A program made the translations under genes and the position numbers. Positions 7,880-64,000 of a DNA stretch of 64,000 bases are shown here, one piece after another (positions within the stretch are counted from its first letter, which is position 1; every line of letters begins with the position of its first letter). Origin of the DNA: a virus. The notes beneath the pieces are model-generated. The model had not been told where the DNA came from. It ran no database searches and saw only the letters and a program-made list of their open reading frames with translations. The stretch covers positions 97,453-161,452 of the IMG/VR virus record IMGVR_UViG_3300035182_000826, one strand, 5' to 3'.

Positions 7880-7912
7880 AAAATAAGGGCGCCATTGGCG
7901 CCCTTATTTTTT
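7880..7912. terminator. Bidirectional intrinsic terminator
   Basis: AAAATAAGGGCGCC-ATT-GGCGCCCTTATTTT between convergent genes. Confidence 0.8.
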
Positions 7913-9265
7913 GAATATCCAATTCCCATAGTTCAAGACTTTTTCAAACCCAAGTGATGTCATTATCTGATCTTCAGTCATATCCATGTCAAACTCTGGA
8001 TATTGCTGAAGCAGTTTTTGCTTTTGTGTTTCGCCGCGTGACAACACAATGTTTCCGCGTTTCCACACGTAGCCTGGCTTAGTCTTACCAACTAAAGTAA
8101 AACCAGCTCTATGATAAATTGTGTCTGTTGGATCTGGTGACCATCTAGCGTCACAGTAAGTGATGCATTCCTGTACATTAAAGTGTGAAAAGCATTTTTG
8201 AAATCCACCAATAATAGTGATTCCTGGCTTCACACACCATCGATAGATTTCTAGCACTTTGTCTTTGCCAAATCTGCTTTTGCCAACAGTCATCACAGCT
8301 AGAACCTGCCCATTAAGGGTCAAGCAGATGCTAGTGCCTCTGACATAGCCTTGTGTATGGTACTTTGTCAAAAATTCATGAGCTACCAAAGATGCAGTGG
8401 TGCCAAGAAGAACTGAACACTTTCTGGCATAGATCCTCTCTTTTTTCATCAACAGTGACTGCACCCGAGATAACACCGCCTGCTCATTTGTAATCAACTC
8501 AACGTCTTGAATTGTGACTACCTTGATGCCATTCACTTTGGCATCTTGGATTTTGTCTAAATCTCGCGTTTGATCTTGATGCCAGTGTGAGCCGTTTACC
8601 TCAAAGCCAATGTTAGCTTTAGGAGAAAAAATATCTATTTCTCTCCTGTCATTAAGTCCTTGACGATAATTTGAAATCACTGTATCGTCTACTTCTTGAG
8701 CTGCCTTAAAAACCAACCCCTGAATATTTGATACTGAGCATTTTGGACAAGCTATGTATTTTGTTTTTTGGAATGGGCGTTCAAATTCAACACCACAAAT
8801 GTGCTTCCACTTAACAATATCACTGGCTTTAGTTGGTGCTTCTGTTATCAATATGAATCCACGGCTTTTTGCTTCTTCAATTTTCCTACTAAGCGCCTTA
8901 GCTGTTTTTGACTTGGCCATTTTTTCAGAAACAGCTCGTCTGAAATCCTCGTTAGACCACAAATTATCTGTTCCATATTTCCGCTCAAGTGTTTCTTTTC
9001 TTTTTGAGATTGTCACACTTGAGGATTGCCCACAAGACTTAGAACAATTTGATCTATATCCATGGGTAAAATCCCAATACTTGGTTAGATTTCCGCATGC
9101 GCATAGTGGGCGTGTGTGAAATAAATTCCAGATCTTCTCTGACACGCTACTTCCACTAAGCTCAGACAACCATGGTGCCTTATTGGCATTCCATCTTGCC
9201 TTCCTAGAATCAAATGTGCCGTTTGTGAAAAACAGTTCTTCTGCGAGGTTTTTGTAGGATTTCAT
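7904..9265 (-). mobile_element. Free-standing Hef-like homing endonuclease gene (PD-(D/E)XK/Vsr-like domain with Zn-binding motifs)
   Basis: EIDIF...IGFEVNGSHWH nuclease motif; Cys clusters; C-terminal H.QG...YCDARWS domain; AT-richer; antisense between sheath and tube genes. Confidence 0.7.
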
Positions 9266-11601: not shown

Positions 11602-11636
11602 GTTATGCTCTGCAGTTTATTTGTTCGGTGCGCACT

Positions 11637-11665
11637 CGGCCTCACCGGTGTCGCCGAGGCTGTGC
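11637..11665 (-). repeat. Solo copy of repeat module A
   Basis: Reverse complement contains GCACAGCCTCGGCGACACCGGTGAGG, identical to the copy at about 24896-24921. Confidence 0.85.
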
Positions 11666-11841
11666 TTTTGTGCACCTAAAGGACGCACAAAGCCGGGAAT
11701 GTTGTTGTCCTGGTTTCGTTCACATGAACGCACGAATTGTCTGACCCTGAGCTGTGATGGGAACATCACGCGACCATCGGTTTGAATGGCAGACCTCTTT
11801 GAACATCCATAAATACAGAATAAGGGTTCAAGGGAAAGCCA

Positions 11842-15507: not shown

Positions 15508-17052
15508 ATGGCTAGAAATCCAAACTTGAAAAGAGCGCACGACACGTGCGAATACGACCTTGAAAAGGTGCAAGAGTTACAGAAGTGCACACAAGACCCA
15601 ATCTACTTCATGACGAAGTACGTCAAGGTTCAGCACCCTACTAAGGGTGCTGTTCCATTTGATCTGTACGAGTATCAGATAGAAATGGTTCGTGCAATTC
15701 ATGAAAACAAAGACACATTGCTATTGTGTTCACGCCAGATGGGTAAAACAACCGTGGCGGCAATGTACATTCTTTGGTTCGCGCTGTTCCACAAGGCAAA
15801 GCGCTGTGTGATTGCTTCTAAGGCAATGTCACATGCAGTTGAAATTCAATCACGTATCAAGTTCGCTTATGAAGAACTACCAATGTGGTTGAAAGCTGGT
15901 TGCACGTTCTACAATCGCACGTCAATTGAATTTGACAACAAATCAGTCATCATTTGTGAAGCAACGTCTGATAAAACTGGTCGTGGTAGCTCTCCAGCTA
16001 TCATCTTCCTAGACGAAATTGCGTTCATTCCACGCCGCATTCAGGATGAAATGTGGGGGTCACTGACACCTGCACTCTCAACTGGTGGTAAGTTCATCAT
16101 TTCATCGACTCCAAATGGCGACTCAGATCTGTTTGCTCAGTTATGGCGTGCTGCAAATTCGAAACAGAACAACTTTGTTCCATTGAGATTCTTGTGGTGG
16201 CAACACCCGGATCGCGGAGAAGCGTACTACAAGGAAATGGTTGGCAAGCTTGGTGAGCTTCGCGCGCGTCAAGAGCTAGACTGTGAGTTCTTGTCAAGTG
16301 ACGCACTGTTGGTTTCCTCAATTGTTCTACAAAGTCTCCGTTGGAAGCCACCAATCTTCGCGTCAATGGGTTTCAAGTTCTGGTGGCCTGAAGAGCTGCT
16401 ATGCGGTCCTAACAACATCTTCATGGTGGCAATGGATCCAGCGTCAGGAACTGGCAAAGACTTCTCCGTGATTGAGATTTTCGAGTTCAACACCATGGAG
16501 CAGGTTGGAGAATTCAGATCGAACGAAATCAACATTCCATTGCTATACGCGAAGCTACAGTGGGTATTGAAGTTCTTAGCAAGAAAGACTGTTGGCGGTA
16601 GTGCTGAGATTCTGTGGACCTTTGAACGCAACGGGCTTGGTGAGGCAATTGCAGCTCTGTACTGCAACGATGACAAGCGTGTTGACGAGGCTGAGTTGCT
16701 AAGTGATCACCCAATGAAGTTTGGTTTGTACACAACCGGCAAACAGAAGGTGCTCTCATGTCTGCAGCTAAAAACGCTTGTTGAGAAGACAACAAGTGGC
16801 TTTAAACTGAACTCAGAGGACTTGATCGCAGAGCTCAAGGAATTCGTTTCAAAGGGTGGTGGGTACGAAGCAAAGTCTGGTGCAACTGACGACTGCGTCA
16901 TGGCGACGGTTGGTATCACTCGCCTGTTGAAGCGGCTAAGTGAGTACAACGACAAGGCGTTCAGAACAGTGAACGAGTATCTTGATCCGGAACAGGATCA
17001 ACTTGTTCCGATGGATGAGTCTAGCTTGCCAGTTCCATTCTCAATATCCTGA
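15508..17052 (+). CDS. Terminase large subunit (gp17-like)
   Basis: LYEYQ, SRQMGKTT Walker A, IFLDE Walker B, SSTPNG, QELDCEF, MDPASG.GKD and DDCVMA RNase H motifs. Confidence 0.95.
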   Translation: MARNPNLKRAHDTCEYDLEKVQELQKCTQDPIYFMTKYVKVQHPTKGAVPFDLYEYQIEMVRAIHENKDTLLLCSRQMGKTTVAAMYILWFALFHKAKRCVIASKAMSHAVEIQSRIKFAYEELPMWLKAGCTFYNRTSIEFDNKSVIICEATSDKTGRGSSPAIIFLDEIAFIPRRIQDEMWGSLTPALSTGGKFIISSTPNGDSDLFAQLWRAANSKQNNFVPLRFLWWQHPDRGEAYYKEMVGKLGELRARQELDCEFLSSDALLVSSIVLQSLRWKPPIFASMGFKFWWPEELLCGPNNIFMVAMDPASGTGKDFSVIEIFEFNTMEQVGEFRSNEINIPLLYAKLQWVLKFLARKTVGGSAEILWTFERNGLGEAIAALYCNDDKRVDEAELLSDHPMKFGLYTTGKQKVLSCLQLKTLVEKTTSGFKLNSEDLIAELKEFVSKGGGYEAKSGATDDCVMATVGITRLLKRLSEYNDKAFRTVNEYLDPEQDQLVPMDESSLPVPFSIS

Positions 17053-17103
17053 ACCCCAAAATTGCGATTTTGGGTTCATGTTTAAGGCATACAATGCCAC
17101 ATC

Positions 17104-17346
17104 ATGGACAAAATCGCAATTTTTTGGTGTTCTCCTGAAGGGGCACCCCACGTAAGCTTCCTACCAGAGTCTGAATTGCTTCAGACGTTGGACATCATCA
17201 AGCAACTGAAACAAGACGGCATGCTTCACGTGACACAGTCGTTTGAACCGTCTGGTATGGTGGGGGCGTCAACTTTCGGTGCTGTTGAAAATGGCAAGCT
17301 GCCGAACGGCGACACCTATGACTGGATGAAGCGGAGACGAGCATGA
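17104..17346 (+). CDS. Hypothetical protein
   Basis: ORF after a TACAAT -10-like site. Confidence 0.6.
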   Translation: MDKIAIFWCSPEGAPHVSFLPESELLQTLDIIKQLKQDGMLHVTQSFEPSGMVGASTFGAVENGKLPNGDTYDWMKRRRA

Positions 17347-22920: not shown

Positions 22921-23952
22921 GTGTTCAACATGGCAGTTGCTCAAGTTTCTTGGAATCCGAGTCAAGCCCGCTGGGAAGCCACCTTTGGTGGCCGAGTGAT
23001 CGCTTCGAACCGGAACTTCTCTGGTGGCGTCGACTACCTCCGTCGTGTGATCGAAGGCGGCTTCAGCCAGAAGGCCAAGAACCTCGGTATCGACAAGATC
23101 GAAGTCCTGCAAGCGTCGACTGCGCTGTCGAACGTTGTGAACGGCACGATGAACTCCGATGATGAGTTGGCTCCGGAGCCACTGCGCAGTCTGGATGATG
23201 AATTCCCGATCAACGAGCGCTTCGCGATCATGACTGACTACGTCGAGATGGTCGCTGAAAAGCAACTCGCATCAACGATCGTGACCGGTGAAGGCGGTCT
23301 CGGCAAGTCATTCACGGTGATGCGCACGCTGCGAGCCTGCGGCCTGGAAGACACCGACAAGTACCTCGGTGCCAAGGAAATCGGCTCTTCGTTCGATGGC
23401 TTCCGCGGCTACAAGGTCATCAAGGGGTACTCCACCGCGAAGGGTCTGTACCGCACGCTGTACGAGTATCGGAACCAGATCGTTGTGTTTGACGACTGTG
23501 ACTCCATCTTGAAGGATGCGAACGCGGTGAACGTGCTCAAGGCTGCCCTTGACAGCTACGATGTTCGAATCGTGTCGTGGAATGCCGAATCGATGATGGG
23601 TGATGATGACCTGCCGCGCAGCTTCGAGTTCACTGGCGGCGTGATCTTCATCTCGAACCTTCCGAAGTACAAGGTGCCGCAAGCCATTCGCTCTCGTGCC
23701 ATGTGTGCCGATGTGAGCATGTCCCGCGATGAAGTCATCGAGCGCATGCAAGTCATCATTGAGTCTGACGAGTTCATGCCGAACTTCTCGATGGAGCATA
23801 AGCGTGAAGCCCTCCAGTTCGTGTCTGATCATCGTGATGATCCGCTGATCGCTGAACTGAACCTTCGCTCGCTGGTGAACGCGGTCAAGGCCCGTGAAGC
23901 CAAGCCGGACTCGTGGGAGCGTCTCGCCCTGTACTCCATGGCGAACTCCTAA
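22921..23952 (+). CDS. AAA+ ATPase, paralogue of 9971..11539
   Basis: GEGGLGKS, VVFDDCDS, NVLKAALD, FTGGVIFISN and AIRSR motifs; GC3-rich codons. Confidence 0.85.
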   Translation: MFNMAVAQVSWNPSQARWEATFGGRVIASNRNFSGGVDYLRRVIEGGFSQKAKNLGIDKIEVLQASTALSNVVNGTMNSDDELAPEPLRSLDDEFPINERFAIMTDYVEMVAEKQLASTIVTGEGGLGKSFTVMRTLRACGLEDTDKYLGAKEIGSSFDGFRGYKVIKGYSTAKGLYRTLYEYRNQIVVFDDCDSILKDANAVNVLKAALDSYDVRIVSWNAESMMGDDDLPRSFEFTGGVIFISNLPKYKVPQAIRSRAMCADVSMSRDEVIERMQVIIESDEFMPNFSMEHKREALQFVSDHRDDPLIAELNLRSLVNAVKAREAKPDSWERLALYSMANS

Positions 23953-24033: not shown

Positions 24034-24069
24034 GGCCCTACAGCGAAAGTTGTAGGGCCATTTTTTATT
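24034..24069 (+). terminator. Intrinsic terminator
   Basis: GGCCCTACAGC-GAAA-GTTGTAGGGCC followed by a T run. Confidence 0.85.
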
Positions 24070-24071
24070 CT

Positions 24072-25005
24072 GCCTCGGCGACACCGGTGAGGCCCGGCTC
24101 ACACAGGCTCGCCAAGACATATATCTTTATTGGCCACTATTTTTAAGCGCACCGGCGTCGCCTCGTGTCGCCGGCTCACGTTGAACCCGCTATTCGTCGG
24201 CTAATGCGCTCTGTGTGCGCCTCACCACTATGAACACCACCTCACTCCAATGAGAACCTGAAGAACTGGTCACCTCGCTCCAATGAAGAACTTGTTGGAG
24301 AATCCGTTGAACCCGCTATCTGTCGGCTAATGCGCTCTATGGGCGCTCACGCCTCACTTAAACTTTTTGCTAATGATAATGTCAGCTCTTGAAGGTCCTT
24401 GACCGTGTCATAGAACCCATTGAACCCGCTATTCGTCGGCTAATGCGCTCTATGAGCGCACTGTGCACCTCACACAAAGAGCCCCTTCTAATTTGGCGCC
24501 TTTCTTAAGTGCAGTTCGCCATAAGCGATAGAGCACCACCTCGGCGACACCGGTGAGGTCCGGCTCACACCGGACCTCACCACCAATAAGTTATGCACAG
24601 CACTTGGCCGGTGTGAGCCGGCGTCGCCTCGTGTCGCCGGCTCACGTTGAACCCGCTATTCGTCGGCTAATGCGCTCTGTGTACGCACACTGTGAGCGAC
24701 TATGACCAATGAAAACTGATCACCTGCTCCAATGAAGAACTTGTTGGAGAACTTGTTGGAGAACTTGTTGGAGAGCCCATTGAACCTGCTATTCGTCGGC
24801 TAATGCGCTCTGTGTGCGCCTCACCACTAAGAACACTCTTCTAATTTGACACTTTCTTAAGTGCGGCACAAATGGCAGTTCGCCATAAGCAATGAGCACA
24901 GCCTCGGCGACACCGGTGAGGTCCGGTGTGAGCCGGACCTCACCGCCAATAAGTTATGCACAGCACTTGGCCGGTGTGAGCCGGCGTCGCCTCGTGTCGC
25001 CGAGG
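24072..25005 (+). repeat. Non-coding modular repeat cluster 1 (modules A-E; five copies of 32-bp repeat C)
   Basis: TTGAACCCGCTATTCGTCGGCTAATGCGCTCT (0-2 mismatches) at 24181, 24307, 24420, 24647 and 24780; CCTCGGCGACACCGGTGAGG at 24073, 24539 and 24902; CCGGCGTCGCCTCGTGTCGCCG three times; GAACTTGTTGGA x3; no ORF of 60 aa or more. Confidence 0.95.
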
Positions 25006-25053
25006 GTGACAGGCGTCAATAGAAGATAAATAGCCAATCATTATGGAGTTCAT

Positions 25054-25701
25054 ATGAAAGTCAAAGATCTATTACAAGAGCTCATTGGCATCAAGAAGTA
25101 CCAAGGCGTTGACTTGCTGCAGCTTCTCATGAAGCTCCAAAGTGAAAAGAAGATCAACGTGAAGAATGGGTCTTTCAGTGTCGTAATCATTCCTGAGAAT
25201 GAAGACTTTGTGTACAGAGTGTGGACACAGGATGGTGGTTGGTTAGATTATATGGAGTACTGCATTGACCACCAAGACAATCCACACATCTTGAAAATCA
25301 AGAGTCGTGCGAAGAAGATTCCATTCATTTTTCAGAGACCTGAGGGGTTTGAGACAACACTGTATGTTGTCAAGACTGAGAAACTACAACCTTTGATTTC
25401 CAACATTGATCTGTTTGATCAGGTCAGAGTGTTCAGTAATATCGTGCAAAGAGATTTTCCAACATATGCGATTGTGAATAAGAGAATCAAAGAGCAAACT
25501 GGAATCAAGACTGATTTTGATAAGAGCTTCTATGACACGGTCAAGGACCTTCAAGAGCACTCACCCTTTCTACTTGACATCTCAACTTCGAATGTGATGC
25601 TGCGTGGAACTACTCTGGTTCTCTCTGATCCAATTGCAGAAGTCGGAACTAAGGAATTCAAAACAGCTGCTGACATTATCATTAGCAAAAAGTTTAAGTG
25701 A
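25054..25701 (+). CDS. Protein-kinase-like protein (reminiscent of T7 gp0.7 kinase domain)
   Basis: NGSFSVV Gly-loop, NPHILKI, YVVKTEKL, LDISTSNVM catalytic loop, LSDP; TAAATA at 25027-25032. Confidence 0.6.
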   Translation: MKVKDLLQELIGIKKYQGVDLLQLLMKLQSEKKINVKNGSFSVVIIPENEDFVYRVWTQDGGWLDYMEYCIDHQDNPHILKIKSRAKKIPFIFQRPEGFETTLYVVKTEKLQPLISNIDLFDQVRVFSNIVQRDFPTYAIVNKRIKEQTGIKTDFDKSFYDTVKDLQEHSPFLLDISTSNVMLRGTTLVLSDPIAEVGTKEFKTAADIIISKKFK

Positions 25702-25747
25702 GGTGTGAGCGCCCGTTATACGCATTAGCCGACGAATAGCAGGTTCA
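25702..25747 (-). repeat. Solo inverted copy of repeat C directly after the kinase stop codon
   Basis: 25721-25747 is the exact reverse complement of 24781-24807. Confidence 0.9.
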
Positions 25748-25819
25748 CGATTTAACCCAAAAAGGGTTTTAGCAAATAAACCCATTAAGTTACATTTTCT
25801 GTACTTCTAAGGTCAGAAA

Positions 25820-27082
25820 ATGGAAAGAAAACTAGTAACAGTTAGACCGATCAGCGCGCTTCTGCCAATCCCTGGGGCTGATGCAATTGAAACTGCTGTC
25901 ATTGACGGGTGGACAGTGGTTGTGAAGAAGGGTGAATTTCAAGTAAATGACCTGTGTGTTTACTTTGAGATTGACAGCTTCCTTCCAGACGGCAACCCAG
26001 CATGGCAATTCTTGGTTGACAAACAGAGTCAAGAATTTGAGGGTGTCAGAGGACATCGACTACGCACCATTCGGCTTCGCAAGCAGTTGAGCCAAGGGCT
26101 GGCTCTGCCGCTTAGCGCGTTTCCACAAATTAAAGACTCTGTTCCGAAGTCGTTTGATGTTAAACCTGGCGCGATTCACCAGGTTTATGGTGAATATCTG
26201 TCTGACACGGACTTCGCTCCACTTCTAGATGTCAAGAAGTGGGAAGCTACTCTGCCAGCACAGCTAGCTGGCCAAGCTGAAGGTCTGTTCCCGTCATTCA
26301 TCGTGAAGACTGATCAAGAGCGCTGCCAAAACCTCTGTCGTCAAATCTTCGGTTATGATCCACAAGTTGTGCCGGTTGATTCTTCAAATATCCCCCAAGA
26401 CGAGATTGATCGACTGCTGAGCACTGGCGAGTTCGTGAAGAATGAGGATGGTAGCATTTCAAAATTGCTGCCAGCGCAAGCGTCGCGTAATGATTGGTAT
26501 GAAGTCACAATCAAGCTTGATGGTTCCTCAATGACTGTCTTCAATGATGGTGGGTACTATGTGAATGAAGACGGCACAGATCATGTTGGTGTCTGCAGTC
26601 GCAATCTAGAGCTCAAGGACAACGAAGAGAACGCCCAGAACGCGTTCGTGAAGATGTTCAATGAGAGCGGCCTGAAGGACGCGCTGAAGAAGACTGGACT
26701 TGCAGTCGCCGTTCAAGGTGAGCTGATGGGCCCGAACATTCAAGGCAATCGTGAAAACCTGAAGGTGCATCAGTTCTTCGTGTTTAACATTCAAGCGCTT
26801 GCGCCAGATGTTCAGCAATTCCTGCCTCCACTGCAGCGTCTTGCAGTGCTTGAAAAGCTCTACGACGCTGGTGTGTCAAGAGAGTTGGTCATGCATGCTC
26901 CGATCCTCTTCTCCAATACCACTCTTGAGGCCCTTGGCATTGAAGATATCCAATCGCTCTTGGACTTCGCGAATGGTCCTTCACTGAACAATCCTGTTCG
27001 CGAAGGCCTGGTTTTCAAGCGGCATGACGGGCTGTTCAGCTTCAAGGCCATCAGCAATCATTACCTGCTGCAGGAGAAGTGA
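25820..27082 (+). CDS. RNA ligase, DRB0094 family
   Basis: RKLVTVR.I....PIPGADAIE, VYFEIDS, KTDQER, motif I KLDGSS, QGEL, EGLVFK and SFKAISN. Confidence 0.9.
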   Translation: MERKLVTVRPISALLPIPGADAIETAVIDGWTVVVKKGEFQVNDLCVYFEIDSFLPDGNPAWQFLVDKQSQEFEGVRGHRLRTIRLRKQLSQGLALPLSAFPQIKDSVPKSFDVKPGAIHQVYGEYLSDTDFAPLLDVKKWEATLPAQLAGQAEGLFPSFIVKTDQERCQNLCRQIFGYDPQVVPVDSSNIPQDEIDRLLSTGEFVKNEDGSISKLLPAQASRNDWYEVTIKLDGSSMTVFNDGGYYVNEDGTDHVGVCSRNLELKDNEENAQNAFVKMFNESGLKDALKKTGLAVAVQGELMGPNIQGNRENLKVHQFFVFNIQALAPDVQQFLPPLQRLAVLEKLYDAGVSRELVMHAPILFSNTTLEALGIEDIQSLLDFANGPSLNNPVREGLVFKRHDGLFSFKAISNHYLLQEK

Positions 27083-35735: not shown

Positions 35736-35763
35736 GCCTCGGCGACACGAGGCGACACCGGTG
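35736..35763. repeat. Solo hybrid of repeat modules B and A
   Basis: GCCTCGGCGACACGAGGCGACACCGGTG; CCTCGGCGACACGAGGCGAC is the reverse complement of 24986-25005. Confidence 0.8.
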
Positions 35764-35895
35764 CCCTCAGAAAAAGGCGGGCGTATGAACTAACACAGGG
35801 GGCCTTAAAGGGCCCCTGTGTCTTTTCTGTGGCCCATTGGTGTTAACAAGATTTGATACGTACCCCATAAATATCTCTTTACGATGGAGATGTTT

Positions 35896-41724: not shown

Positions 41725-44358
41725 ATGCGCATCACCTTTAGACAAGGTCTCATCGCTTTTCAAAAAGACAATGGAGCTCCACAGTTCCTACAGGCCTCAT
41801 CGACTACTTCTTACGTGACACATGTGGTTTCACCAACCGCAACAGTGATCACATTTGCACATGGCAGCTCTGATTACCTGACGACATTTGACACTCAAGT
41901 AGAAACTGCTTGGGGTCCAGTTACTGCTGGTGTCACGAACTACCTATATTGGGATATGGATTTGCTAACTGGCGCCATTACGCGTGGTATCACACTGCAT
42001 CCTCCAATCTCATCACTGACGGCACCTTCATCTCCATCAAACGACCAGCACTGGTTTGATTTGAGTACAACCACAATGAAGGTCTGGAGCACTTCCAAGA
42101 ACAAATGGATGCCTAAGATCAGACTCTTTGCTGGTTATGTTTCTAATGGCAACACTTCACAAATCACAATGTACGGAGAAGGCTCTCAGGTAGGGCTAAC
42201 TACGGCGACACCGGTGGGCGCCGGCTACATTGTTCGTGACACGTTGTTGAACCCTATGAGAAAGAGTTCTGGTGAGTTCCTGACCACTGAGGATAAGACT
42301 CATGTTGACGCAACAGTTGGCACTTCAGGCGTCTTGGTCCAGCCAGTGAATCGTGTCTCAGTAGTCAGAGCTGGTGAGAACATTCCTGCAATGTCATTGG
42401 TTTACTTCTCAGGTGATGATGTTGTCAAGCTTGCAAGCTCAAATCCAGCCCTATCACCTGCTAGAGTTCCAGTTGGTATCATGCTGGAGGCTGTTGCTTC
42501 TGGTGATGTTGGTGTTCTATCTCCATTTGGTGAAATCTCCTATGACCAATGGGATTGGTCAGGCTTTGCTGGCAGTGCGCTTTACTGTGACACGAATGGC
42601 CAGCTGACAAGAACCCGCCCAGCAGGTCTGTTGGCTTATCGTGTCGGTTTCATCAAAAACCCAACTACGGTTCTACTAGATCTTGACGCCGAGACAAACC
42701 CTCAGGTTTACACCGCCGATGTGAACAGCTTGGTCATTTCTGGCATTTCTCCAGTAGTAACAACTGACACAATCAATGGACTTGGTGAACGGGTAGTAAC
42801 CATCGGGGTGCCAAATTCCACGCTGACATCAAGTGGGTTGATGAGTGCAGCTCAGGCCGTCCAGCTTGACTCATTTAACACTCGAATCACCGCAGCTGAA
42901 CAAGAGATTGTTGTTCTTGAAACTTCAAAATCTGATGTTGGCCACATGCACGCAATTGCTGATGTGACAAACCTTCAGACGACTATTGATGGCATCAACA
43001 CCGCTCTTAATGGGAAAGTGGATAAGGTGGTTGGTGTTATTGGGAACTTTCCAGCTTTTGGAGCAAGTGGTTCCATTGTTGACAGCACTTTTAGTGGCTC
43101 TTCTTTCGCGCTGGTAATTCACACGCACACAATCGCTGATGTGACTGGCTTGCAAAACGCACTAAATGGCAAGTCAAACCGCGTGCACTTTAACAGCTTC
43201 GCTGAAATCTATGAAACTGTTGACCGCACATCATCAGTTGATGTTGGATCTGGCAACACCCTTGTTACTGCGCTCGCGTTGAAGTCAAATGTCGGCCACA
43301 TGCACGCGATTAGTGATGTTTCAGGCTTACAAACTGAGTTGGATGGTAAGTCAAATGTTGGTCACTTGCACACGATTGCCGACGTTTCAGGCTTACAAAC
43401 TGAGTTGAACAACCGCGCATACGTTTCTCACTCGCACACTCCAGCCTCAATTACGGGCGGCACTGCAGGACAAGTGATTGTCTCAAATGGCACCGCTGGA
43501 ACGTGGAGCACTGTTTCGTTTGAAACTCCTGTTGCGCCAGGAACCGTCACGCAGTACTACCGTGGTGATAAGACATGGCAGACGCTGAATAAAACAGCTG
43601 TTGGTCTTGATCAGGTCGATAACACCACTGATCTGAACAAGCCAATCAGCACAGCTACTCAAGCGGCACTTGATTTGAAATCAAATGTAGGACACACCCA
43701 TGTGGCTGCAGACATTACTGATTTTGTATCAGCCACTGATACAGAAATCAATGCTCACCTTGCTGCAGGAGAGAACATCTCATTCAGTACAGTGGCTGGT
43801 CATTTGGTAATTTCTGGGCAGGGTGGCTATGTTTACAAGCCAGTTCATTTGGTCACCACTGAAAACATTGACTTGCAAACACCACCAACCACAATTGATG
43901 GCGTCGCTATTCCAAACCATGGTCGTGTTCTTGTGCAAGCACAAACAGTGCACTCAGAGAACGGAATTTACGTTTATCAAGAAGGTGCTCTTGTCAGATC
44001 AGCTGATATGCCAGTTGGTGCTTCATTAGTTTTTGGTTCATTGGTGTATGCGCTAAGTGGAACAGCATTTGGCGGGTCGCTATTCGCAGTAACGAGTGAT
44101 GATCAGATCGCATTGACTTCTATCGTTGTTGGCACCGATGGAATTGCATTTAAGCATGTTGCCTCAGGGGCCACCGGATCTTCACTAACAGTGCTAGACA
44201 CTGAGGCTGGTCTTAACGAAGATTTCCCAAGCACTGGAAGTGTTGAAACCCTCACATTTGGAAATGGTTTGAAGGTCTACACTGCAGCACCAAATAGTGT
44301 TGAAGTTATTTCCGTGATTAAGACACGGACACTGAACCTAAACATTGACAACGTATAA
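41725..44358 (+). CDS. Tail fibre protein with HxH repeats
   Basis: Repeated KSNVGHxH.IADV.GLQT.L; VGLDQVDNT.D.NKPIS motif; AAGGA RBS. Confidence 0.85.
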   Translation: MRITFRQGLIAFQKDNGAPQFLQASSTTSYVTHVVSPTATVITFAHGSSDYLTTFDTQVETAWGPVTAGVTNYLYWDMDLLTGAITRGITLHPPISSLTAPSSPSNDQHWFDLSTTTMKVWSTSKNKWMPKIRLFAGYVSNGNTSQITMYGEGSQVGLTTATPVGAGYIVRDTLLNPMRKSSGEFLTTEDKTHVDATVGTSGVLVQPVNRVSVVRAGENIPAMSLVYFSGDDVVKLASSNPALSPARVPVGIMLEAVASGDVGVLSPFGEISYDQWDWSGFAGSALYCDTNGQLTRTRPAGLLAYRVGFIKNPTTVLLDLDAETNPQVYTADVNSLVISGISPVVTTDTINGLGERVVTIGVPNSTLTSSGLMSAAQAVQLDSFNTRITAAEQEIVVLETSKSDVGHMHAIADVTNLQTTIDGINTALNGKVDKVVGVIGNFPAFGASGSIVDSTFSGSSFALVIHTHTIADVTGLQNALNGKSNRVHFNSFAEIYETVDRTSSVDVGSGNTLVTALALKSNVGHMHAISDVSGLQTELDGKSNVGHLHTIADVSGLQTELNNRAYVSHSHTPASITGGTAGQVIVSNGTAGTWSTVSFETPVAPGTVTQYYRGDKTWQTLNKTAVGLDQVDNTTDLNKPISTATQAALDLKSNVGHTHVAADITDFVSATDTEINAHLAAGENISFSTVAGHLVISGQGGYVYKPVHLVTTENIDLQTPPTTIDGVAIPNHGRVLVQAQTVHSENGIYVYQEGALVRSADMPVGASLVFGSLVYALSGTAFGGSLFAVTSDDQIALTSIVVGTDGIAFKHVASGATGSSLTVLDTEAGLNEDFPSTGSVETLTFGNGLKVYTAAPNSVEVISVIKTRTLNLNIDNV

Positions 44359-48348: not shown

Positions 48349-49467
48349 GTGTTTATGGTTTTCTTAACTTTCTTTTCAGCCTTCCTAATCGAAGGTCTTG
48401 GAACTGTAATTTCAGTTCTAGGAGCAATGGCTCTGTTTGGTGTGAACCCTATAATCACATCACTATTCGTTGGCCTTGACATTTGTAAGATGGTGGTGCT
48501 ATCGCTGCTTTACAAAAACTGGATTGGCTTCAATGGAATCATGAAGAGCTATGGGGTGATTGCAACCGTCATCATGATGACAATCACTAGTGCTGGCGCA
48601 GCTGGATACCTTACAGGCGCCTTTCAAACTGCCATCTTAGGGTCTCAAGAGGGATCACTTAAGGTCAGCACTCTCAAAGAGCAGCAAGCAAAGTATGAGG
48701 AACGAAAGAAGCAGATCGACGAACAGATTGCATCGCTTCCAGAAAAAACCTCTGTGAATCAGCGCATTCGAATGATGAACGCGTTCAAGACCGAGCAGGC
48801 TGACCTTCAATCCAAAATCAATGACATTGACAAAGAGCTGCCAGCACTACAGGTGAAACAGCTTGGGGTTGAAGCAAAGGCCGGGCCAATCTTATACTTG
48901 GCAAAGGCATTCAACATTAGTGTTGAAGAAGCCATCAAATACGTGATCATGATGATCATTGTTGTGTTTGACCCGCTTGCGGTGTACCTTGTGCTGGCTG
49001 GGAACTATCTCCTAGCTCAACGGAAGGTCGCCTCGGCGACGCCGGTGGAGCCGGTTGCACCACAGGTGACTGAGCCAACAGAACCTATTGAGACTGTTAA
49101 ACAGAGTGAGCACGTGTCACCTCGTGTCGCCGAGGCTGTTGCTCTTCCTGAGCCAGTTCCTGAGCCAGTTCCTGAGGTAGAACCTGAGGTCGTTCCTGAG
49201 CCAGTTCCTGAGGTCGTTCCTGAGGTCGTTCCTGAGGTCGTTCCTGAGGTCGTTCCTGAGGTCGTTCCTGAGGTAGAACTTGAACAGCCAGCGCAATCTG
49301 TTCAGCGCCCAGCATATGACTTGATTACCAAGGACATGCTTCTTGGGAAAAAGCGCCAGTCATCAAGCGAGTTTAGGTCCTCATTGAATGATGTTCAAGC
49401 TGACGCTTTGACACAAACTGATGGTGATCGCGCCGGCGTGAACCTAAATCTTTACACTGGTCAATAA
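48349..49467 (+). CDS. Membrane-anchored coiled-coil protein with Pro-Glu-Val repeat tail
   Basis: Three N-terminal TM segments, coiled coil, GP..YLA, IIVVFDPLAV.L, PEVV repeats. Confidence 0.75.
   Translation: MFMVFLTFFSAFLIEGLGTVISVLGAMALFGVNPIITSLFVGLDICKMVVLSLLYKNWIGFNGIMKSYGVIATVIMMTITSAGAAGYLTGAFQTAILGSQEGSLKVSTLKEQQAKYEERKKQIDEQIASLPEKTSVNQRIRMMNAFKTEQADLQSKINDIDKELPALQVKQLGVEAKAGPILYLAKAFNISVEEAIKYVIMMIIVVFDPLAVYLVLAGNYLLAQRKVASATPVEPVAPQVTEPTEPIETVKQSEHVSPRVAEAVALPEPVPEPVPEVEPEVVPEPVPEVVPEVVPEVVPEVVPEVVPEVELEQPAQSVQRPAYDLITKDMLLGKKRQSSSEFRSSLNDVQADALTQTDGDRAGVNLNLYTGQ
49146..49277 (+). repeat. In-frame 12-bp tandem repeat (CCTGAGGTCGTT and variants), about 11 units
   Basis: Encodes PEPV/PEVE/PEVV. 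Confidence 0.9.
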
Positions 49468-58726: not shown

Positions 58727-59216
58727 GCACAGCCTCGGCGACACCGGTGAGGTCCGGCTCACTTCGAATTTAAGAGGCGTTAAGATATACACCAGGGCTC
58801 TTTCGTGAGCCCTGGGGCGTTTTAGGTGACACGAGAAAAGAATAGGTCCTCTTAGGTGCAGCGCGCACAGAGCGCATTAGCCGACAGATAGCGGGTTCAA
58901 TTGGTTCTTCAACAAGTTCTTCATTTGGAGAGAGTGGCCAGTTGCTCACACAGCGCGTGCCCATAGAGCGCATTAGCCGACAGATAGCGGGTTCAACATC
59001 ATCCGGCGACACGAGGCGACGCCGGCTCACACCGGCCAAGTGCTGTGCATAACTTATTGGCGGTGAGGTCCGGTGTGAGCCGGGCCTCACCGGTGTCGCC
59101 GAGGCTGTGCTCTATCGCTTATGGCGAACTGCACTTAAGAAAAGGCGTCAAATTAGAAGGTGGCCATTGTTACTCACAGTGCGTGCCCACAGAGCGCATT
59201 AGCCGACGAATAGCGG
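58727..59216 (-). repeat. Non-coding modular repeat cluster 2 (mostly an inverted copy of cluster 1 modules)
   Basis: Reverse-complement repeat C at 58869-58900, 58965-58996 and 59191-59216 (partial); modules B, A and E at about 59003-59159; forward module A at 58727-58762. Confidence 0.95.
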
Positions 59217-59279
59217 AAACATGTAAGTCTATCGTGTCAGAAAATAAATACCGTTGAAGTAGTTCGAAAGTAGGACGAT

Positions 59280-63329: not shown

Positions 63330-64000
63330 ATGACAGAAAAATCCATCACCTCATTCAAAGGCTTCGATGCCAATCTGAAGTGTCGAGGCTTCCAGTACGA
63401 AGTAGGGAAGAGCTACGAGCATGCTGGCGGCGTAGAAGTCTGCAAGAGCGGCTTTCATGCCTGCGAGTACCCGCTGAGCGTATTCCACTACTACCCACCA
63501 GCCGGCAGTCGATTCGCACTCGTTGAGCAATCCGGCTCGCTGAGTCGTCGAGGTGAGGACGGCAAAGTTGCCAGTCGCCATATCAGCGTGAAAGCCGAGC
63601 TAACCATCGCTGACCTGGTCAAAGCTGCGGTGGAGTACACAACCAGCCGCAGCAAACCTATAGACCCAGAATCCGCAGCATCCGCAACGGGCGACTACAG
63701 CACCGCATCCGCAACGGGCTACCAAGGAGCAGCGTCCTCCACGGGCTACCAAGGAGCAGCATCCGCAACGGGCGACTACGGCGCAGCATCCTCCACGGGC
63801 TACCAAGGAGCAGCATCCTCCACGGGCGACTACGGCGCAGCGTCCGCAACGGGCGACCGAGCCGCTGCATCCGCAACGGGCGACTACGGCGCAGCGTCCG
63901 CAACGGGCGACCGAGCCGCTGCATCCGCAACGGGCTACCAAGCCGCTGCGGCCGCGACTGGCGTATGCGGAGCAGTGTCCTCCACGGGCTACCAAGCCGC
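63330..64000 (+). CDS. Phage protein with N-terminal conserved domain and 9-aa Gly/Ala/Ser repeats (runs off the window; not in the ORF track)
   Basis: AGGA RBS; MTEKSITSFKGFDANLKCRGFQYEVGKSY...CKSGFHACEYPL...; then 27-bp repeats encoding AASATGDYG/AASSTGYQG from about 63676. Confidence 0.85.
   Translation, partial: MTEKSITSFKGFDANLKCRGFQYEVGKSYEHAGGVEVCKSGFHACEYPLSVFHYYPPAGSRFALVEQSGSLSRRGEDGKVASRHISVKAELTIADLVKAAVEYTTSRSKPIDPESAASATGDYSTASATGYQGAASSTGYQGAASATGDYGAASSTGYQGAASSTGDYGAASATGDRAAASATGDYGAASATGDRAAASATGYQAAAAATGVCGAVSSTGYQA

Follow-up and report, generated by a model that had tools for sequence, protein, structure and literature searches.

A two-piece inverted copy of part of a protein-kinase-like gene was found between two copies of repeat C in a non-coding array of a T4-like jumbo phage, and it is very probably a recent, one-off accident, namely a templated insertion produced by template switching. 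Moreover, the 18-bp core of this repeat (CTATYYGYCRVCTAATGC) is conserved and evenly spaced in the genomes of related uncultured jumbo phages, being apparently an undescribed, clade-wide genomic site. The window, i.e. the whole stretch of 64,000 nucleotides analysed, forms the end of a linear virus record of 161 kb, whose completeness is estimated at 45%, the remaining 55% of the genome being absent. The record was assigned to a T4-like jumbo phage on the basis of its capsid protein, which had 52% identity to that of Ralstonia phage RsoM2USA and 71-81% to those of several uncultured contigs of 290-350 kb. Furthermore, UvsX-like, SbcC/D-like (gp46/47), endonuclease VII and helicase genes were encoded in the record, constituting a T4-type recombination set. 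The features around the kinase-like gene are collected in Table 1.

Table 1. Features of the kinase-like gene neighbourhood and of the repeat C arrays in the window (positions from the first letter of the window).
Feature	Position	Strand	Remarks
AAA-type ATPase gene (PHROG 1250)	22930..23952	+	Upstream neighbour; near the kinase gene in relatives too
Terminator-like hairpin between ATPase gene and array	24034..24059	+	Consensus match only
Mosaic non-coding repeat region	24073..25005	+	Five repeat C copies, three 98-bp hairpins, shared linker modules
Repeat C copy 1	24181..24212	+	Holds the clade-wide 18-bp core
Repeat C copy 2	24307..24338	+	Opens the insert-bearing unit
Templated piece 1	24341..24386	+	Reverse complement of 25669-25714 (45/46), covering solo-site tail, stop codon and final codons
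Templated piece 2	24385..24415	+	Inverted copy of 25528-25558 (kinase codons 159-169), 31/31, BLAST E 3.5e-11
Repeat C copy 3	24420..24451	+	
98-bp hairpin element	24542..24639	.	Fold z = -6.1; 34-bp centre and inner 14-bp arm in both orientations among genome copies
Repeat C copy 4	24647..24678	+	
Repeat C copy 5	24780..24811	+	Single-base variant common only to copy 5 and the solo copy
98-bp hairpin element, inner arm flipped	24905..25002	.	
TAAATAG upstream of kinase gene	25027..25033	+	Presumably T4-late-promoter-like
Phage protein-kinase-like gene, 215 aa	25054..25701	+	Insert donor
Solo inverted repeat C	25717..25748	-	Points into the 3' end of the kinase gene
RNA ligase gene	25820..27082	+	Gene-order breakpoint relative to G001 between RNA ligase and kinase genes
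Second array	58727..59222	-	Same modules, three C copies, without gene-derived DNA

Both inverted matches reported by the initial annotation, one exact over 31 nt and the other covering the last codons, the stop codon and the 3' flank (45/46), were reproduced, together with their fusion at a 2-nt GC overlap, the omission of the 110 nt between them (25559-25668) and the presence of an inverted repeat C after the gene, which is the solo copy. As the 46-nt match starts with 13 nt copied from the non-coding tail of this solo site, about 60 nt of the insert come from coding sequence plus the stop codon. Copies 2 and 3 are separated by 81 nt, of which 75 matched the solo-site strand in order. The unit (24307-24419) opens with an array-type C and, from 24341 onwards, follows the solo-site strand through a 10-mer, then tail, stop codon and 30 bases of coding sequence; after a jump at GC to 25558 it runs to 25528, and four bases ahead of copy 3 it resumes the ending that is usual for the units. 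This 10-mer appeared directly after repeat C at two sites only, the insert unit and the solo site, and one base within the solo-derived stretch agreed with the array consensus instead. Moreover, the residues encoded by both pieces aligned by eye with the kinase of the related genome G001, which points to the kinase gene as the donor.

Gene-derived DNA was found in one of the 24 units, only the one described above, and the others could be tiled from pieces of 13-107 nt belonging to other units. Record-wide, the core of repeat C had 28 matches at six loci, consisting of four multi-copy arrays plus single or partial copies, in which the units run from C to C. The earlier observation that the DNA between C copies 2 and 3 is not unique was extended to the other inter-repeat segments, which were mosaics of shared modules with lengths of 62-230 nt. 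When the arrays were compared with the masked genome, the kinase insert was the only match to coding DNA beyond chance 13-20-mers. One other unit had a 36-nt segment for which no source was found in the available sequence (L007:4275-4310), which is possibly a second capture from the absent half of the genome, and an unexplained 22-mer in another array matched neither the unique DNA of this genome nor prokaryote genomes. Of the 12 hairpin copies, two had the centre reversed and two the inner arm, and short repeats stuttered immediately before C in the units. At L010:12866-13127 (minus strand), a 9-nt unit was repeated about 17 times just before a C copy, merging into the start of C as a stutter at the unit boundary. 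A contig from another assembly, 99.5% identical, carried the common base and not the variant at the solo site. Exact searches with the C and hairpin variants of this phage gave no match in viral contigs or prokaryote genomes, and a single 336-kb contig in metagenomes (apparently G001); the hairpin 22-mer was also absent from the prokaryote genome collection, and three viral matches to the hairpin left arm were chance similarities located in genes. In addition, isolated hairpin half-copies without repeat C were seen in the window at 11623-11666, 35740-35776, 42200-42226 and 49030-49144, and tandem repeats in coding DNA with periods of 12 nt and 27 nt at 49109-49307 and 63620-63997, respectively, the first of them adjoined by a hairpin-element fragment.

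Repeat C exchanges sequence and marks rearrangement points in this genome. The C loci coincided with gene-order breaks (4/7 vs. 14/111, p 0.01; 5/6 vs. 15/86, p 0.002), in a test that is biased because the intervals holding sites are longer. No such coincidence was found when G001 was compared with G004, both of them having single sites (breaks at 1/9 vs. 27/160).

Regarding the origin of the insert, a nascent strand within array copy 2 would have switched to the inverted solo site, which is homologous to that copy and lies 1.3 kb away, and there used the solo-site tail and then the 3' end of the kinase gene as template. At the 2-nt microhomology it would have slipped by 110 nt on this template, extended for a further 30 nt or so and rejoined the array directly before copy 3 through a microhomology that is short and rich in purines. 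Such a templated insertion would involve three jumps, the first guided by repeat homology and the last by microhomology, and one such process could yield the mosaic units, the flipped hairpin centres and the homogenised inverted pair. The matches, junctions, mosaicism, flips, shared variant, singularity of the insert and recombination genes were observed, and we infer the order of events and the enzymes involved. For the middle jump, the 2-nt junction is a weak indication; a hairpin was considered as the cause of the 110-nt skip and rejected, as none explains the jump. Template switching between inverted repeats yields arm homogenisation and spacer inversion (PMC8604942), so that the flips of hairpin centre and arm and the variant common to copy 5 and the solo copy correspond to described products. 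The same arm homogenisation, spacer inversion and multi-jump inserts are known from microhomology-mediated templated insertions, but these were reported in yeast and human DNA, whereas here the DNA is that of a T4-like phage and the first jump would rely on repeat homology (PMC8604942, PMC8421209). The near-perfect identity suggests that the insert is recent, its age and frequency being deduced from this identity alone because no array-bearing close relative was found. Although of little importance in itself, the insert illustrates clearly the trace that template switching would leave in a phage genome.

The kinase-like gene encodes a protein with a kinase-like fold, near clusters in which 11-32% of the members are labelled T7 kinase family (a lead). 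The residues E109, D175, N180 and D192, near-invariant among 119 homologues, were kept, so the kinase is perhaps active as judged from its sequence. A pseudokinase, considered for having R55 in place of K, was rejected, as R is present in 17% of the homologues and the catalytic residues are intact. Within the wider family, some proteins are fusions of three to five such domains, and an AT-rich phage had six tandem paralogues (L001:5830-9100, also L002). In G001, the kinase orthologue (44% identity) also has this ATPase gene nearby, and the position of the array is taken by three small genes; no C site was found near that kinase, nor any copy of the kinase gene >15 nt genome-wide. Overall, at about nine kinase homologue loci (six close and three weaker), no C site, array, insert or copy of gene DNA >14 nt was detected, all of the homologues being distant (<=44% identity) with no array-bearing close relative among them. 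What the initial annotation had set against its own proposal, a one-off inverted duplication lacking in relatives, agrees with the findings among these distant relatives, the array-bearing close relative being the part of that comparison that was not found.

One of the two readings offered earlier, that the array gives rise to repeat-bounded small RNAs antisense to the kinase mRNA and acting as guide or antitoxin, is extremely improbable. A plus-strand transcript of the insert is antisense to that mRNA, the duplicated words recur in four runs and the retained catalytic residues suggest that the kinase may be active, but the insert is confined to one unit and is not conserved beside kinase homologues. 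Moreover, among the families searched, neither Cas1 nor Cas12f/TnpB was found in this 45% complete record and five relatives, a Nop-domain (Tas) gene appeared in 0 of 6 genomes with a model that may miss distant Tas proteins, and IS110 was missing from this record and the near-complete relatives. No sigma-70 promoter match was found within the array, which is preceded by the terminator-like hairpin; the RNA of the insert unit folded no better than its shuffles (z -0.9); no Rfam family reached the threshold; and the insert targets the middle and 3' end of the gene, away from the ribosome-binding site and the start of translation. Among the public runs listed for the locus, none was of RNA, a result that weighs neither for nor against transcription. 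With relatives free of sites and copies, and no effector, promoter, fold or family match, this reading has no support beyond the antisense orientation. An assembly chimera, affecting the insert or its position beside the kinase gene, is likewise scarcely credible, even though the array is highly repetitive, the order of its units comes from one short-read assembly, one run joins them differently and, among the contigs listed, none spans the insert or the array. In four public runs (perhaps one campaign, one of them perhaps the source sample), contigs ended at 25528/25557-58 and 25669/25698 and depth went up over these words, as expected if the words occur twice in real DNA. Furthermore, the unit carries array-type bases absent from the solo site, and the longest stretch common to this array and other loci was 57 nt.

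The other earlier reading, a recombination or capture site, stood in that repeat C exchanges sequence and marks rearrangements; gene remnants were not kept systematically and no site-specific recombinase was found. In its stronger form, with repeat C as a dedicated capture or cassette recombinase site (integron-, pdif- or REP-like) and the array storing captured flanks, it is distinctly improbable. Each of the three solo C copies closely follows a stop codon and is oriented back into the gene before it, the kinase gene is flanked by inverted copies with its neighbours changed relative to G001, and adjacent core sites in relatives alternate their orientation somewhat above chance (33/50 neighbours, P 0.01). 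However, no tyrosine or serine recombinase, Y1 transposase, RT or gpA-type initiator was detected in this record or four near-complete relatives, and the core has neither inverted arms nor a dif consensus (two arms around a 6-bp spacer), a host enzyme acting at a non-dif site being compatible with these results. In addition, the junctions are microhomologies outside the repeat, the flanks of the other solo or terminal sites were not captured, and the sites in relatives are mostly not breakpoints. As the gene and array searches cover the 45% complete record, a dedicated enzyme or extra captures could sit in the absent 55%. The templated insertion by template switching is the reading retained for the insert.

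The core was found as single intergenic copies in G001 (9), G002 (8), G004 (11), G006 (11), G007 (9) and G008 (8); the reversed control gave no match, and the core was lacking in six genomes of more distant phages. RsoM2USA, XacN1 and Xoo-sp13, the cultured phages with the most similar capsid protein (45-52%), had no core either, and the repeats of this phage matched those of no cultured phage. The gaps between sites had means of 28-42 kb and a CV of 0.25-0.46, compared to 0.83-0.88 for random placement (P <0.0001 to 0.025), and the null confined to intergenic gaps gave P <=0.0005 in three genomes, although the spacing tests are not independent because the genomes are related. A blind k-mer scan again gave the core as the most evenly spaced motif in G001, G004 and G006. 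For seven of the nine G001 sites, a G004 site was located beside the orthologous gene, and in G004 the core lay mostly at a fixed 15 bp after the same hairpin arm as in this phage. The 80 intergenic core instances had no majority orientation with respect to neighbouring genes, which speaks for a DNA-level site rather than a gene promoter. In this phage, the six loci had a mean gap of 30 kb, the same density as in relatives, and tended to fall at gene-order breakpoints. No tandem array was found in the relatives examined; among these genomes, only this phage has amplified core sites into arrays. The core has an 11-bp internal period. Regarding a protein that would read it, a comparison of three genomes with the motif and two others gave 25 candidates, present in all of the former and in neither of the latter, and the ten scanned against Pfam had no DNA-binding family. 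GC skew did not change at 31 sites (p 0.82), this being a weak test if there are many origins. No literature on an evenly spaced core motif in jumbo phages was found in a search of incomplete coverage. Other dispersed motifs were seen in two genomes. The more distant jumbo phage G011 (L309-L326) had 24 copies of a 12-mer like the XerD arm of dif without the XerC arm (e.g. 30608, 194528-194546 and 292571-292590), often paired and adjoining promoter-like sequences. G012 (L327-L344) had its own intergenic 13-mer at 17 sites (e.g. 71233-71295, 131877-131939 and 330559-330621), frequently arranged in inverted pairs with about 60 bp between them and with fairly even spacing (CV about 0.5), which is possibly an analogue of repeat C.

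Concerning the role of the core, a replication-start or nick site is tentatively favoured because of the even spacing, the independence from transcription, the 11-bp period, the pairing with a long hairpin in two lineages and the amplification in units that start at a fixed point. An anchor for genome organisation or packaging seems somewhat unlikely, a site for a host recombinase unlikely and a phage-specific promoter more doubtful still. The reverse strand of the core resembles the SP6 promoter, but this resemblance was rejected along with those to Ter and dif, as no single-subunit T7/SP6-type RNA polymerase (0/15 genomes above the cut-off), no Tus gene (0/7 genomes) and no dif consensus were found. 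Taken at somewhat less than an even chance, the broader proposal is that an uncultured T4-like jumbo clade marks its genome about every 30 kb with a conserved, polar 18-bp site, which a protein would read at the DNA level as a sequence-defined multi-origin or genome-organising system, and that the arrays of this phage drive rearrangement and at times copy gene DNA. Replication start and DNA organisation in 300-kb T4-like phages are largely unknown, and a conserved, even motif offers a direct handle on them.

Baculovirus homologous regions are likewise dispersed sites with direct repeats or palindromes, associated with replication starts and local instability. In T4, the origins, including the oriE iterons, are dispersed sites with such repeats, tied to replication starts and local instability, but they share no motif (PMC3016281), whereas one 18-bp motif is present in all the sites here and the origin role is a prediction. 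One of the two closest likenesses was found in Campylobacter group II phages (CP21, CP220 and CPt10), where the regions RR1-RR4 are extragenic, 1-3 kb long and made of variable units around a short core, dividing the genome into modules of 28-55 kb; direct or inverted arms enclose genes, single cores lie elsewhere and the regions are linked to module rearrangement (PMC4546147). The arrays of this phage share with them the extragenic multi-unit organisation around a common core, the distances of tens of kb and the location at rearrangement points. However, the sequences are unrelated, the 13-bp core of that family differing from that of C; mosaic units containing 98-bp hairpins are found here; relatives keep the core as evenly spaced single sites; and no spliced inverted gene copy was seen in the parts consulted of that description (PMC4546147). 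By analogy, the arrays would work like the Campylobacter regions without being members of that family, and this genome suggests that single sites can expand into such gene-reshuffling repeat regions. The other, the PeSL cassettes of the T4-type phages RB49 and phi1, are repeated intergenic cassettes with stem-loops, and their recombination shuffles nearby genes, but they are sigma-70-like early promoters in hyperplastic regions, whereas C has no sigma-70 match, is evenly spread and is not oriented with genes, so that PeSL membership fails (PMC2839356).

With regard to the remaining systems, the array was not a member of any of those compared, whether CRISPR, TIGR, integron or REP, nor of the PeSL and Campylobacter groups. 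CRISPR mini-arrays, CreTA and TIGR arrays have a repeat of about 32 nt flanking a gene-matching piece; here, the spacers are neither unique nor uniform in length, in contrast to the near-constant unique spacers of CRISPR arrays, only one matches a gene, and no effector of the families searched, including the Nop-domain gene of TIGR-Tas, was found. The conserved pairing element of type I toxin-antitoxin systems was absent at the distant kinase homologue loci, and integrons and pdif modules differ in their tyrosine recombinase gene and dif-type site, neither of which was detected. REP/BIME/REPIN elements have in common with the array an intergenic mosaic structure made of palindromes and linker modules, but their Y1 (RAYT) transposase was not found.

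Some other features of the record were observed. An exonuclease gene distant from the arrays (L009:17800-18471) matched a Cas-associated PHROG family weakly (E 1.4e-6) and is probably a common solo Cas4-like phage nuclease. Moreover, a paralogous pair of about 440 aa (window 7904-9265 and L010:9300-10601) matched PHROG homing/HNH endonuclease families, with a C-terminus matching Mom-like families. Finally, small repeat proteins with a common leader formed a multicopy family (L007:18292-18906, L008:18317-18697 and L009:10224-10727, 15993-16532 and 16557-17261).
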